64,000 bases of DNA from Dictyostelium discoideum (GCA_000004695.1 CM000151.3:3232001-3296000), one strand, 5' to 3'. Positions 46,808-64,000 are shown, counted from the first letter of the stretch. Notes: generated by a model from the sequence alone, not told the origin. Made by a program: numbers and translations.

Positions 46808-48823
46808 TTAATTTTTCATATATAACTCTTTGATTTTATAAAATAGTTCAGAGTCATTGACATCGTCTGGTAATTGATAGTTTGGATCATTTAATAAATT
46901 TGATAAAATTTGTCTTGGAATTTTACCAACTTTTGTTTTTGGTAATTGGTTAATAACTATTATTTTTTTTAAGACTGCCAGTGATTCAATATCTTGCGTG
47001 ATGATATTATTAATTTCATTTTGTAATTTATTTAAATCAATTGATGGATTTTCTTTTAATACCAATATACCAATCGGTGCAGTACGACAATCTGGACTTA
47101 AAATACCAATAGAACAACATTCTAAAACTGATGGATGTTTTAAAATTGATGTGTCAATTGTATTTAATTGAATTTTATTACAACTTATCTTAATTTGATC
47201 ATCTGATCTTGAAACAATTGTATAAAATCCTCTTTGATCTATATAACCTAAATCACCTGAATCATAGTAACCTGGAAACCTTGTAAATAGTTGTTTAAAC
47301 TTTTCATCATTTTTATAAAATGTAATTGCAAAACTGGGTGGCATTGGTAGTTTAAATGCAACTAAACCAATTTCATTTGAATTCAAAACTTCACCTTCTT
47401 CTGAAAGTATTGATGGTCTAATATAAATTGATGGTACGCCAGTGGCTCTATAAGGAATATTTAAAGCATGGACACTAATAAATGAAGTTACGCCAATTTC
47501 ACTTTGACCGTATACTCTTAAACATTTTATTTTTAACTTTTGTTCAATGTATTCTGGAATTGATTCTTCAATTACTTCACCGCCACACCATATTTCTTTT
47601 AAATTTGATAAATCATACTTAGAACGTACAATTGTTCCTTCAGGATCAGTTTTAATAAGGTATCTAAATACAGATGGGGATGGAAATGTATGTGTTACTT
47701 TATGTTTTACAATAGCTATCCATAAATCATCTTCTATATGTTCGTTTTTTATAATACCACCTTCATACATTACCAAGGTGTTTCCTCCAGATAATAAACC
47801 ATAAAAGAAACCATGAAATGATACCCACCCAATATTTGCATTTGAAAATACAATTTGAGGTATATCTGATTCTTTACGGAATGTATAGTATTTAATACCA
47901 ACCATATGCGGACCATTACTTCTTACAACAGCTTTGGTATTACCAGTTGTGCCACTTGTATAAAGTATATATAATGGATGACTTGATTCTACTGGTACAT
48001 ATTCATAAAATGGTGATTGATTATTTTCTTTTAATTTTTTAATTTCATCATACCAACTTAATGTATTTGGAATAGTTGGAATATTTTGAACTTTTTTTAA
48101 TTTTGTTTCATCCAAAACTTCATTTCTAAATAGAGTAATTACATTACTTGGTTTAAAAGTTGATAATTCAATTGCTTCTTTTAAATTTGGTGTAAATGTA
48201 ATGATTTCGTCATTAAAAATACCATAATTTGTTGTAATTATTAATTTTGGTGTAATTGTTTCGATTCTATCTATTAAACTTTTAACCGAATAACCATCGA
48301 ATAATGTACATTGAGTTGCACCAATACGAGCACATGATAACATTGCAATTAATGGTTCTAATGTATTTGCCATAAATATTAAAACATTATCATTTTTTGA
48401 AACATTTAAGTTTAAAAGAACTCTTGAAAATTTACATACTTTTTCATATAATTGATAATAGGTTAATTTAATTGTTTTCTTTAAATATGGACATTCATAA
48501 ATTAATGCATCTTGATCTCTTTTAGCAGGATTTTTAATATGAATGTCTAATAAATTATAACATGTATTTAATTCACCACCTTTAAACCAATCTGGATATA
48601 TTTCATCGCCACTATAAACTTTATCATACATTTTTTCCCTTTTATTTTTAAAAATCTTAGTTTTTGTTTTAATTTTAATATCTCTTTTTTAACAAAGAAA
48701 AAAAAAGATATATATTTACCAAAAAACATTCTTTTTAGCAACCTCATCCCAAAAAGCTTCTGGATTAGAATTTGAATAACTGTTATCATTTAAATAATCA
48801 AAAGGATCACTAAGTTTATACAT
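46808..48823 (-). CDS. Acyl/acetyl-CoA synthetase-like adenylate-forming enzyme (ACSS/PrpE-like), paralogue 1, ~644 aa. Exons complement(join(46808..48638,48720..48823)).
   Basis: Main ORF has the AMP-binding motif YTSGTTGNTKAV, YGQSE, the hinge DQIKISCNKIQ and C-terminal PKTKVGKIPR (A10 Lys). The first exon was found by eye: MYKLSDPFDYLNDNSYSNSNPEAFWDEVAKKNVFW, which is the PEAFW...W N-terminal signature of acetyl-CoA synthetases. Donor TG|GTAAAT at 48719 (phase 2); acceptor AAAAG at 48639-48640 gives W-E-K-M-Y-D-K-V... Total 1935 nt. Confidence 0.8.
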
Positions 48824-49961
48824 ATTTGTTTTTAATTATTTAATAAAATGAAAATGAAAAATTAAATATAATAAAATACAAATGAAATATTAAAAAAAAA
48901 AAAGAAAAAAAAAATTAATAATACTAAATCATGGAAAAAAAAAATTTATACATAAAAATAAATTTTATTGCACCCGTCATTAAAAATTATTCATATTATG
49001 AATATCCTAAATTACAAAAAGTGAGTAAACTAGAATTATGAAATGAATAAAATTAAATAAAAAAAATATGTCCACTAATAATTTCAATTAAGATTATTTA
49101 AAAGATACATGAAAAAGGTTTATTTAAAATCTCCAAATTTATTCCTACTACTTTTTTTTACATATACCATAATTCATAATAAAAAAAAATAAGAAATTAA
49201 TGTCGCAATAAAAAATATAAATAAATAAAATAATATGGAGAATTTTTTGGGAAAGTGCAAAAATTCTAATGAAAAAAAAAAAAATTCTTATTGTTTGTTA
49301 GATAATATTTTTATATAATAAAATTTTTAATAAACTAATATCAATTTCTAATTAATAATTAATCACACTTTATTATTAAATTATCATAAAATAATTAAAA
49401 AGAATCTGGCCATAAAAAAAATATATTTTAATAAATTAAAAATTGAAAAAATCTTATATTATTTAATTAGAATTGAATATTAATTTGTCATTAAATTATA
49501 AAAAATTTATTGATTTACCATATTGTGAGAAATTTTACTATTGTAATTTCTCATTTTTTAAAACATAAAACTATAATTTAATAATATACAACAATTAATA
49601 GGAAATAATACTATTGAAATTTCTCATTTTTTAAAACATTAAACTATAGTTTAATATATTGTAGATTATTAAAAACTATAATAAAATGATAAAAAATAAT
49701 GGGTGTACAATAAATATTTAAATAAAAAATATTAAAATATAAGAATTTTTATTTTTTTTTAAATAATTTAACATTTTACTAGGTTTTTTTTTCCCGTGCA
49801 AGATATTTTTTTTTTTTTTTTTTTAAATTAAAAAAAGGTTTGAAATTATCATATCTGCCCAATATCTATAGGGTTTTAAAAATTTTCATTCATATATTTT
49901 TTGTAATTATCTTTATTTAAGTTTTGTCTAATTAAATGCCTAGATAAAATGGAGTCCAAAG

Positions 49962-49999
<38 letters not shown>

Positions 50000-50689
50000 A
50001 AATATAAATAGAATCATTTTATATCTTTCTCATTGTTTGAATTAAAAACAAAACAAATTATTTTATATCTTTCTCATTGCTTAGATTGGGATTTTATAAT
50101 TATTTTTTTAAAATTAAATTGTTAAATTTTTTTTTACTGATCAAAATTTTTTCATATCTTTTGAAAAAAAAAAAATAAAAAAAAATCTTAAAAATATAAA
50201 TAAATATTCATTTTAATAACCAAACAGTCTAGTTTTTATTTTTATTTGCAGTTTTTTAAGAAAAAAAAATTTAAAAAAATTTATCTATTTTTCCTTATTT
50301 TCTCTATTTTTTTTTTTTTTTAAGGAATATCTCTTTAGTGGTGATAAAAAATAAAAAAAGGATAGAATCCAAAAAATATGGATAATTAATTAATAATTTG
50401 GATATATGTAAAATAATAAGGAAGGAGGTGGATTAAAAAAACTCTTTTCGTCCCATAGTAAAACACTATTTTTAGTCAAAAAAAAAAAATAATTAAAAAA
50501 AAAAAATCAAAAAAAAAAAAATCAAATAATTTCAAACATATTATTTAAAAGTTTAAATTTTTTTATTTTTTTTTTATATTTTTTATATATTTTTTATATC
50601 TCCTACTTTTATTAAATTAAAAAAAAAATAATCCAAATTATTTTCTTTTTTAATTATTATTGTTGGAGGGAATTTTCCATAAAATTTCA

Positions 50690-51148
50690 CTACAGTAGCG
50701 TAGTGAATTTTATTATTTAATTTGACTACGCTGCTGTAGTGAATTCCTATTGACGGTGCGTTCATGAAGTTAAACCTGGGTGGTGTGTGTTACACAATAT
50801 ACCGTGTGAGAATTCACAATAAGCAAATATTTCAATTTTATTGATGTCGTAGCCTTATTGCGGTTTTAATATTTTGGAAAAAATTAAAAACAGAGGTTGA
50901 AATAGAAACCTTAGTTCTTTTTTAAGTTACAAAATTTGTGCGACTTCTTTCAACTCAACCGATAAAGTTAGAATCCATTTTAACTACCAAATTATATTAT
51001 TTTTATTTTATTCTTATTTATTATATATTTCTTTTTTAATTAAATATTTTTGAAATTATAATAATATTTTAAGTGGGGAATTTGTGTGACATTTTTTTTA
51101 TATTTTGGTTTTTAAATATTATAATGAAACTTTTTGTAAAATTAAATA

Positions 51149-63234: not shown

Positions 63235-63298
63235 TCTTTTAATATAAGTATTAATAATAATAAAAAAAAAAAAAACTATTGAATATGGAAGAAGAAAG

Positions 63299-63330
<32 letters not shown>

Positions 63331-63568
63331 AATAATAAAAAAAATGATATGTGATATTAATAAAATAAAATTAAAAATAACTAATAAATTTTATAGTATC
63401 ATTAATTGATCCAATAATTATTATTATTATTACTATTTACAAAACAAATATAAAAAAAGTCTGAATAATAACCACTGACACCCACATACACTGAAAAATA
63501 CAGAAATAGAAATAATAATTTAATAATAATTTTAATTGAAAAAAAAAAACAAACACATACCCAAAAAT

Positions 63569-64000
63569 TCAAACTGTTTTATTTATAAAAGATTCTTTAA
63601 TTTCTAAAAATAATTCATAGTCATTAATATTACTTGGCAAAACAAAATTGATATCATTTAATAATTTTGATAATATTGATCTTGTATTTTTTCCACTTTT
63701 TGTCTTTGGTATTTTCTTAACAACTATTATTCTTCTTAATATTGATGATTATCAATATCATTTGAAATTATCATATTTATTTCTTTTTCTAATTCTTTTA
63801 ATTCAATTGGATTATTATTTTGATTATTTTGATTATTTTGATTATTTTGATTATTTTGATTATTTAATATTAGAATACCAATTGGTACAGTCAAGAATTC
63901 TACATCTTTAATACCAATACAACAACATTCTAAAACCAATGGATGTTTTAAAACTGAAATTTCAATTGTATTTAATTGTACTTTATTTGATTTAATTTTT
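63569..64000 (-). CDS. 3' end of a seventh ACS-like paralogue (partial; continues beyond the window), with an internal frame break and an (NNQ)n insertion
   Basis: Reverse strand encodes ...KSNKVQLNTIEISVLKHPLVLECCCIGIKDVEF...; the poly-Asn/Gln tract comes from (ttgattatt)n at 63820-63860. ...ISNDIDNHQY* sits in one frame and ILRRIIVVKKIPKTKSGKNTRSILSKLLNDINFVLPSNINDYELFLEIKESFINKTV* in another, with stop TGA at 63569-63571. It is therefore either a pseudogene or a sequencing frameshift. Confidence 0.5.

Follow-up and report, generated by a model that had tools for sequence, protein, structure and literature searches.

A tandem cluster of PrpE-derived adenylate-forming enzymes with a predicted medium-chain-type active site on chromosome 2 of Dictyostelium discoideum

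The stretch of DNA analysed here, referred to as the window, comprises 64 kb of chromosome 2 of Dictyostelium discoideum AX4 (CM000151.3:3232001-3296000; chromosome 2 record of 8.48 Mb) with a G+C content of about 20%. Seven minus-strand paralogues of an acyl-adenylate-forming enzyme lie within positions 46808-64000 and had been described in a first-pass annotation of the window as an array of genes resembling acetyl/propionyl-coenzyme A (CoA) synthetases. The array is real: repeat analysis recovered six in-register copies with start-to-start spacings of 4738, 2721, 2008, 2631 and 2311 bp, and a seventh copy is cut by the window edge at 64000, with just its 3′ end lying inside. The start coordinates reported for the copies are their 3′ (stop-codon) ends on the plus-strand scale and hold as such, except that copy 4 ends at about 56746 instead of 56754. 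The 5′ ends of the genes were read and the models were built by script, with splicing predicted from the sequence. The copies (c1 to c7) and the duplicated flank of the first one are as follows.

46808..48823, minus strand: copy 1 (c1), DDB_G0273365/DDB_G0273687, intact, 644 aa; exon 1 48823..48720, intron 48719..48639 (81 nt), exon 2 48638..46808; Cys at the A8 tunnel glycine
51546..53561, minus strand: copy 2 (c2), DDB_G0273229, 644 aa; exon 1 53561..53458, intron 81 nt, exon 2 53376..51546; Phe at the A8 glycine; FGQSE
54264..56281, minus strand: copy 3 (c3), DDB_G0273305/DDB_G0273691, 645 aa; exon 1 56281..56178, intron 80 nt, exon 2 56097..54264; Tyr at the A8 glycine
56746..58289, minus strand: copy 4 (c4), pseudogene; exon 1 and intron (62 nt) intact, rest damaged
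58882..60902, minus strand: copy 5 (c5), DDB_G0273227/DDB_G0273695, intact, 652 aa; exon 1 60902..60799, intron 62 nt, exon 2 60736..58882; A8 Gly kept
61184..63234, minus strand: copy 6 (c6), DDB_G0273225/DDB_G0273697, intact, 655 aa; exon 1 63234..63131, intron 83 nt, exon 2 63047..61184
63569..64000 (432 nt), minus strand: 3′ end of copy 7 (c7), continuing past the window as L001:804-3220
45375..46807, strand not applicable: 3′ flank of copy 1, duplicated 3′ of copy 2 at 49800-51545 with 87-96% identity

All six complete copies share an exon 1 of exactly 104 nt, the last letters of which (TG, directly before the GT of the intron) split a Trp codon and give a phase-2 intron; all introns are of the GT..AG type, and exon 2 ranges from 1831 to 1864 nt. 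The spliced products of the five intact copies are residue for residue the annotated AX4 proteins (DDB_G0273365, DDB_G0273229, DDB_G0273305, DDB_G0273227 and DDB_G0273225 for copies 1, 2, 3, 5 and 6), and therefore the split first exon proposed in the first-pass annotation is already part of the official gene models. The intron position is common to the four copies found beyond the window and to the copies of D. dimigraforme and D. purpureum; being kept back to D. purpureum, the intron is old. The catalytic motifs that had been quoted for the whole family are present, with the corrections that copies 2 and 3 read FGQSE and copy 3 reads PEDFW. In AX4, every intact copy of the window has a pair of gene IDs and a pair of GenBank accessions (e.g. 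DDB_G0273365/DDB_G0273687 and DDB_G0273227/DDB_G0273695). AX4 is known to have a large duplication on chromosome 2; an array located inside it would fit the paired IDs, and the whole array would therefore occur twice in AX4, which, if so, matters for knockouts and for the mapping of RNA sequencing reads.

Protein identity amounts to 97% between c1 and c2 (17 residue differences in total, among them the A8 tunnel-glycine residue), 91% between c5 and c6, 86% between c3 and c1/c2, and 76-78% between the groups c1-3 and c5-6. Judged by the shared flanks, c1 and c2 are the products of a segmental duplication of about 4.7 kb, and the long spacing between them arises because the duplication unit takes in approximately 1.4-1.7 kb of 3′ flank. 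The possibility that the spacer between c1 and c2 contains a relic copy was rejected; none was found by tblastn, and the extra length is the duplicated 3′ flank. The designation of copy 4 as a pseudogene was borne out by a 2-nt deletion with frameshift near 58063, an in-frame stop near 57270, a further 3′ frameshift and an internal deletion of about 0.6 kb that takes out motifs A5 to A8. Damage was additionally found in copy 7, where a 1-nt frameshift near 63735, just ahead of PKTKSGK, puts motif A10 out of frame and where, beyond the window (L001:1811-3202 region), a poly-(SG) insertion of about 130 aa directly follows the YGQTE motif; this copy is probably non-functional. The Ser-Gly insert is a simple-repeat expansion of the kind typical of Dictyostelium coding DNA, here invading an enzyme core, and the same copy also has an Asn-Gln repeat near its C-terminus.

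For the region beyond the window, flanking DNA was taken from another D. discoideum assembly (locus L001), which was reached via DDB_G0273215. This locus overlaps window positions 62766-64000 at 100% identity and therefore continues the window. It contains, in order, the full copy 7, a spacer of about 6.8 kb, four plus-strand copies (c8 to c11) and a TRAPPC10 gene. Copies c8 and c11 correspond to DDB_G0273215 and DDB_G0273211, respectively, c10 is intact, and c9 is frameshifted after YGQTETG. The array of the window is hence only part of a cluster of 11 full-length members, 8 of them intact and 3 disrupted (c4, c7 and c9). Two further short relics were found by tblastn, and two more diverged paralogues are located on chromosome 1. 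The spacer between the two sub-arrays (L001:3250-9990, equivalent to window positions of about 66015-72755) encodes a class-3 lipase (Lipase_3, 3.7e-18), a CfaA_B_C counting-factor-associated protein and an HPP-family membrane protein; the presence of a lipase within a cluster of acyl-activating genes could be a functional link or a coincidence.

Family membership was assessed with Pfam for c1, c3 and c5, and all three proteins showed ACAS_N (PF16177; 55-60 bits, cut-off 27), AMP-binding (PF00501; 173-175 bits, cut-off 29.9) and AMP-binding_C (PF13193; 47-59 bits, cut-off 24.5) well over the cut-offs. The ANL core motifs (A3 P-loop, A5 Glu, A7 Asp, A8 Arg with the hinge Asp, and A10 Lys) occur in 8 of 8 intact copies and are incomplete in c4 (deleted) and c7 (A10 out of frame). 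Lys607, Glu415, Asp497 and Arg512 (c1 numbering) are invariant in an alignment of 50 sequences. The NCBIfam models for the two best-known enzymes of this type gave scores of less than half their equivalog cut-offs, namely 341.4 bits (c1) and 348.9 bits (c5) against 724.95 for AcsA (TIGR02188), and 327.6-348.2 bits against 955 (NF007815) and 281.4-297.0 bits against 827.4 (TIGR02316) for PrpE. The proteins are therefore equivalogs of neither enzyme. Among solved structures, the best match by sequence was the PrpE of the bacterium Dinoroseobacter shibae (5gxd; 1e-90 over the full length), followed by yeast, fungal and bacterial Acs (1e-66 to 1e-57). An AlphaFold model based on the 50-sequence alignment reached a predicted local distance difference test score (pLDDT) of 90.7 and a predicted template modelling score (pTM) of 0.90, and the top 50 Foldseek matches were PrpE or Acs only, with 5gxd as the best (E 2e-63). 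The model has the two-domain ANL fold, with a template modelling (TM) score of 0.85-0.90 to adenylation-state and of 0.72-0.73 to thioester-state Acs structures, and is therefore in the adenylation state. The ANL assignment made in the first-pass annotation, with its Acs/PrpE-type architecture, is correct at the level of fold and superfamily.

All of the nearest non-dictyostelid homologues are annotated as propionyl-CoA synthetase and share 33-35% identity with the array proteins. An N-terminal extension is absent from the array proteins, in which ACAS_N begins at residue 15; a canonical dictyostelid paralogue that retains Trp414 (P0052) has a Ser/Thr/Lys-rich N-terminal leader of about 45 aa. 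On this basis the array proteins are probably cytosolic. A literature search on 12 gene IDs of the family found none of them mentioned in any searchable paper, and a search for the short-chain acyl-CoA synthetase family in Dictyostelium returned irrelevant papers only; the genes are annotated but unnamed and uncharacterised, as the first-pass annotation had supposed.

In order to compare the active sites, the Acs and PrpE sequences of E. coli were taken as references from its annotated K-12 genome, and positions are given in Acs numbering, which we take to be the same for E. coli Acs and for the Salmonella Acs of the literature. A first alignment set the references against every cluster member, further dictyostelid paralogues and ten PrpE homologues from bacteria; a second one took in 40 members of the expansion. 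The P-loop, Glu417, Asp500, Arg515, the hinge Asp517 and Lys609 are kept in the array. The following replacements were found.

Acs Trp414: Gly in the array copies
Acs Val386 (Ala in PrpE): Gly in the array copies
Acs Thr311: Ser in the intact array copies
Acs Gly312: Phe or Ile in the intact array copies
Acs Arg191: Phe, Leu, Ser or Gly in the array copies (Phe, Leu or Ser in the window copies)
Residue 194 (Arg or Lys in PrpE): Glu in the array copies
Acs His525: Asn in the array copies (Lys in c3)
Acs Arg526: Lys in the array copies
Acs Arg584: Thr, Lys, Ser or Asn in the array copies (Thr in the window copies, Lys in c5)

At the four positions of the AcsA acetate pocket (Val310, Thr311, Val386 and Trp414) the array has Val/Ile, Ser, Gly and Gly, and the AcsA arginines Arg191, Arg526 and Arg584 are all replaced. 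The pocket of PrpE (Trp414 with Ala386) and its A8 motif (Ala/Ser-Gly-His-Arg) are likewise not those of the array, which has Gly414, Gly386 and an A8 motif of the form x-[G/C/F/Y]-N-K. The array has two features expected of a medium-chain enzyme, Gly in place of the Acs cap Trp and Lys in place of Arg526. Copy 3 moreover has Ser at the position of Acs Gly387. At Acs Gly524, the A8 glycine by which the pantetheine tunnel is opened, c1, c2 and c3 have Cys, Phe and Tyr, respectively; the orthologues of two other strains have Tyr and Cys there, and nearly all other members have Gly. Across the 40-member expansion, Gly414 is near-invariant (one Ala) and Gly386 occurs in most members, and the remaining positions are more variable, chiefly in the chromosome 1 paralogues and their orthologues. 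Two groups of differences had been regarded in the first-pass annotation as lining substrate pockets, and neither does so: ATQCTLFDG corresponds to Acs 157-165, a stretch that includes none of the four pocket residues established by experiment (310, 311, 386 and 414), and the series ISCN/IGFN/IGYK/ISGN falls on the A8 glycine at the tunnel, on the acceptor side.

The functions of these positions are known from other enzymes. Trp414 is seen as the chain-length cap in fungal Acs structures (PMC8383264; its role also in PMC10455477), and an Acs mutant with Gly at this position takes alkyl groups of up to seven carbons and also branched-chain acids (PMC8383264). Arg191, Arg526 and Arg584 of Acs are the arginines that touch the CoA phosphates or fix the thioester state; MacsMa of Methanosarcina acetivorans is without all three, has Lys at the 526 and 584 positions and makes acyl-CoA despite their lack, and in AcsMt variants of Arg586 the ability to tell CoA from 3′-dephospho-CoA is gone (PMC10455477).

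Among the 65 nearest non-Dictyostelium homologues, 57 carry Trp-Trp at 413-414 (the other 8 fell outside the search pattern), and 64 of the 65 have Ala386 and likewise 64 have AGHR at 523-526. A separate canonical PrpE/ACSS3-like lineage of dictyostelids (P0052 and P0130) keeps Trp414, Gly524-His-Arg526 and Arg584. For a wider survey, a phmmer search was performed against 1.84 billion cluster representatives, and 134 sequences were tabulated, i.e. the 130 nearest full-length matches and four references. The notion that the Gly414 pocket is unique to the array was rejected, as Gly414 occurs in 26 of the 134 tabulated sequences, two of which are c1 and c5. The nearest others are dictyostelid paralogues of D. 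purpureum, D. firmibasis and Polysphondylium violaceum, and a Pyrobaculum enzyme also belongs to them. The combination of Gly414, Gly386, loss of the three arginines and 11-fold tandem expansion was found, in the tabulated sample, in Dictyostelium only. By these residues the array proteins are assigned to a PrpE-derived scaffold with a medium-chain-type active site.

A neighbour-joining tree was calculated from Kimura distances over 622 columns with 100 bootstraps, and support values were recomputed as bipartitions. The 40 sequences of the D. discoideum species complex form one clade (100%), the sister of which is a single D. purpureum gene (100%). Orthologues of c8 and c11 are present in D. 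citrinum, D. dimigraforme and D. firmibasis, and those of c10 in D. citrinum and D. dimigraforme (82-100%). Copies c1 to c6 cluster with D. discoideum strains only (70%), and the clade around them (98%) adds no more than two genes from D. citrinum and two from D. dimigraforme; the copies in the window are therefore the product of the most recent burst in a cluster that is itself older. The D. dimigraforme locus has two tandem copies and a relic, and that of D. purpureum one copy and a relic. Phylogeny, which the first-pass annotation had proposed as a check, thus places the array in a lineage-specific expansion, the tree assigning it to the D. discoideum species complex.

Nei-Gojobori ratios of nonsynonymous (dN) to synonymous (dS) substitution were 0.27-0.50 in 10 of 10 pairs of intact window copies and were lowest, at 0.06-0.24, in the N-terminal domain. 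Values of dS were 0.04 for c1/c2, 0.14 for c5/c6 and 0.2-0.37 between the groups, and were roughly even along the gene, with dN being low at codons 91-210 and high at codons 241-330 and 391-480. Such a pattern speaks for purifying selection, with some stretches having undergone relaxed or diversifying change. Gene conversion was rejected as an explanation for the very conserved N-terminal third, since dS there equals that elsewhere and only dN is low. In the last 60 or so codons (571-630; window 54264-54500 and 61184-61420), dS is 0.07 between copies 3 and 6 and 0.47 between copies 1 and 5, and the 3′ ends of copies 3 and 6 may represent a short gene-conversion tract, although the counts are small. 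When the five intact copies of the window are compared, 19 of 36 active-site-proximal sites are variable (53%) compared to 165 of 562 elsewhere (29%; Fisher p=0.005), an enrichment that is suggestive only, because the segments were picked from the literature, partly after the alignment had been viewed. Nearly all of this variation separates c1-3 from c5-6. The diversification proposed in the first-pass annotation is therefore real but lies mostly between these subgroups, c1 and c2 being 97% identical. With a monophyletic, tandem arrangement, purifying selection on the intact copies, three disrupted copies and two fragments, the data point to a birth-and-death family with repeated duplication, purifying selection and extra active-site variation.

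From the observed gene structure, fold, residue replacements, phylogeny and selection regime we infer substrate size, CoA use, cytosolic location and possible roles of these enzymes. In the reading preferred here, to which a probability of roughly 0.6 is given, the cluster encodes acyl-adenylate ligases with an open pocket that would make medium-size acyl-CoA thioesters, probably in the cytosol. Within the ANL superfamily, the proteins would have their origin in the PrpE/ACSS3 branch of propionyl-CoA synthetases. While the C-terminal domain is in the adenylation position, ATP-Mg and the carboxylate would be bound by Lys607 (c1 numbering; Acs Lys609), the P-loop TSGTTGNxK, Glu415, Asp497 and Arg512, and the acyl-AMP would form; the C-terminal domain would then turn about Asp514, and a thiol, most probably CoA, would attack via the pantetheine tunnel. 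Since both the cap Trp414 and the opposite Val/Ala386 are Gly, the pocket should be open as in medium-chain synthetases, and substrates larger than acetate or propionate are expected, by analogy C4-C8, branched and perhaps cyclic acids. With Arg191, Arg526 and Arg584 replaced, CoA would have to be held otherwise than in Acs. A difference in the handling of substrate or acceptor is probable between the subgroups c1-3 and c5-6, and c1 and c2 are too recent for much divergence. As biological roles, the activation of food-derived or xenobiotic acids, by analogy to ACSM, or a part in secondary metabolism are candidates.

Several points weigh against this reading. The substrate size is derived by analogy from four pocket positions. 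In MacsMa, the space of the missing Trp is filled by another Trp, Trp259 (PMC10455477), and with Phe in place of Gly312 the real pocket of the array enzymes could be smaller than, or shaped otherwise than, the term open implies. The active-site-proximal segments were our own choice, made in part with the alignment in view, and a dN/dS below 1 provides no formal evidence of positive selection. As 3 of 11 copies are dead, some of the intact ones could be drifting, and the bulky Cys, Phe or Tyr at the tunnel glycine of c1-3 might impair rather than tune thioester formation. In a further variant, c1-c3 would no longer be CoA ligases and would act as free-standing adenylators that pass medium-size acyl groups to a carrier-protein arm, e.g. 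of a polyketide synthase (PKS), or to an amine. It is considered because the CoA arginines are all lost and the bulky A8 residue changes fast, and is regarded as a long shot; if true, c1-c3 would constitute a eukaryotic loading enzyme descended from the scaffold of a propionyl-CoA synthetase.

A first alternative, that ordinary acetate or propionate CoA synthetases were amplified for dosage, agrees with AcsA and PrpE being the best family and structure matches, with the presence of ACAS_N and with the nearly unchanged active-site residues within the pairs c1/c2 (97% identical) and c5/c6 (91%). It is nevertheless judged very improbable in view of scores of 341-349 bits against 725 for AcsA and far under 955 for PrpE, and of Gly at both 414 and 386, where 57 of 65 PrpE relatives match Trp-Trp and 64 of 65 have Ala386. 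The subgroups also differ at 19 of 36 active-site-proximal positions, and the organism possesses the separate canonical lineage of P0052 and P0130. Equally poor odds are given to a decaying remnant, i.e. duplicates from unequal crossing-over that drift to pseudogenes with no maintained function. The three disrupted full-length copies (c4, c7, c9), the two fragments, the substitution of a superfamily-conserved glycine in c1-3 and the relics in D. dimigraforme and D. purpureum would all be expected from such decay. However, dN/dS is 0.27-0.50 in all ten intact pairs and falls to 0.06-0.24 in the N-terminal domain, the catalytic residues are all kept in the 8 intact copies, orthologues of c8 and c11 are retained in three other species and those of c10 in two, and the intron is kept back to D. 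purpureum.

Starter-acid supply to the Dictyostelium polyketide synthases, as proposed in the first-pass annotation, would have the enzymes deliver acyl-CoAs or, in the case of c1-3, hand the adenylate to the phosphopantetheine of a carrier protein. The predicted cytosolic location and the open pocket would suit this role, as would the loss of the three Acs arginines, given that AcsMt Arg586 variants are unable to tell CoA from 3′-dephospho-CoA (PMC10455477), and the Cys/Phe/Tyr at the tunnel glycine of c1-3, which changes even between copies that are 97% identical. Yet MacsMa without the three arginines still makes acyl-CoA (PMC10455477), and a FAAL-type insertion was not seen in the AlphaFold model. 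No PKS, carrier-protein or tailoring gene was present among the ten largest open reading frames (ORFs) scanned upstream of the array, the genes called further out are unrelated, and a literature search combining Dictyostelium PKS, acyl-CoA ligase and starter unit gave no link to these genes. The proposal as such is left unsupported, and this use of the enzymes is considered unlikely.

The ORFs mentioned above were taken from the 47 kb upstream of the array and scanned against Pfam; five had a match and five had none, and the matches include a G8/CEMIP-like protein, an Arb2-domain hydrolase, a copper P-type ATPase and a TPR protein. Together with Lipase_3, CfaA, HPP and TRAPPC10, the called genes around the cluster, including 21 kb beyond it, are unrelated to it, and no sign of a biosynthetic gene cluster was seen in the flanks examined. 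The ATPase ORF (window 31098-34430, plus strand) has HMA domains and an E1-E2_ATPase match (1.5e-49), is of the heavy-metal, copper type and is unrelated to the array. An inverted dispersed repeat of about 0.8 kb with 75-80% identity links window 45741-46502, in the 3′ flank of copy 1, with 17245-18178, 28 kb apart, and may be a fragment of a mobile element. Genes for tRNAs, which often adjoin Dictyostelium retroelements, are absent from the 64-kb window. Upstream of the array genes the following sequence boxes were identified.

56465..56498, minus strand: GT/CA-rich box GTGTTTGTGGTTATTT..ACACCCC, 184-217 nt before the ATG of copy 3
53753-53770: related box upstream of the ATG of copy 2, with the palindrome ACACACTGGGGTGTGT
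58430-58459: related box upstream of the ATG of copy 4
61016-61050: related box upstream of the ATG of copy 5

The boxes of copies 3 and 4 have GTGTTTGTGGTWATTT..ACACCCC in common, and similar boxes are found at about -260 of copy 6 and at -324 of c8 (L001). The ACACCCC heptamer occurs four times in the window (1.0 expected), and all four occurrences lie 115-215 nt 5′ of the ATG of copies 2-5. GT/CA-rich boxes are a feature of developmentally regulated Dictyostelium promoters, which the array boxes resemble. They are candidates for a shared promoter element, and the array may be co-regulated.

Annotation pipelines, like the first-pass annotation, label these genes as acetyl-CoA synthetase-like. 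With Trp414 and Val/Ala386 both replaced by Gly and NCBIfam scores that do not reach half of the cut-off for either AcsA or PrpE, the label acetyl/propionyl-CoA synthetase-like is misleading in its implication of short-chain substrates, and an activity towards acetate or propionate should not be assumed for the gene products. Since families of acyl-CoA ligases have often expanded, this one is unsurprising in kind. What it would offer is a natural Acs/PrpE scaffold re-tooled with a medium-chain-type pocket by the Trp-to-Gly change that protein engineers make on purpose, multiplied to 11 clustered copies and two on chromosome 1 in one species complex of bacterivorous soil amoeba. The family would thereby form a compact natural experiment on the diversification of substrate and acceptor handling in ANL enzymes. 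It could also take part in an uncharacterised carboxylic-acid metabolism of Dictyostelium, for instance that of prey-derived or xenobiotic acids or of secondary-metabolite precursors, and the value of the present analysis lies in having corrected the prediction of function and in providing a well-defined set of enzymes for testing.

In comparison with known systems, the array proteins are nearest by sequence and fold to PrpE/ACSS3 (D. shibae PrpE 5gxd, E. coli PrpE), with which they share the three-domain layout and the catalytic Lys, Glu, Asp and Arg. They differ from PrpE in Trp414 and Ala386 being Gly, in AGHR (523-526) being S/G-[G/C/F/Y]-N-K, in the lack of Arg584 and of a basic residue at 191/194, and in scores of 328-348 bits against the cut-off of 955. 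With Acs (Salmonella and E. coli Acs, yeast Acs1) they share the fold at a TM score of 0.85-0.90, ACAS_N and the A3, A5, A7, A8 and A10 core residues including the PX4GK lysine, whereas three of the four acetate-pocket positions are changed (Thr311 to Ser, Val386 to Gly, Trp414 to Gly; Val310 is the exception), the CoA arginines 191, 526 and 584 are absent and the scores are 341-349 bits against 725. The medium-chain enzymes (MacsMa 3etc and mammalian ACSM) resemble the array in having Gly at Trp414, Lys at Arg526 and none of the three Acs CoA arginines. The closest relationship is not to Macs/ACSM, all top 50 fold matches being PrpE or Acs; 3etc matches only at 2e-24 over residues 229-610, leaving the ACAS_N region uncovered, compared to 1e-90 for 5gxd, and of the CBAL-like CoA site of MacsMa (Tyr460, Arg490, Tyr525 and Tyr527) the position taken to correspond to Tyr460 is Asn or Lys in the array. 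In mammals, too, the ACSM genes are clustered in tandem, and their products act on xenobiotic and medium-chain acids. Finally, a Pyrobaculum protein annotated as acetate--CoA ligase (P0149) has an Acs/PrpE-like scaffold with Gly414, and natural open-pocket variants of the scaffold therefore exist elsewhere; the archaeal Gly414 enzymes, which are Acs-like and of broad specificity, differ from the array in keeping Gly524-His-Arg526, Arg584 and Arg191/Lys194, and are single genes with about 33% identity to the Dictyostelium proteins.

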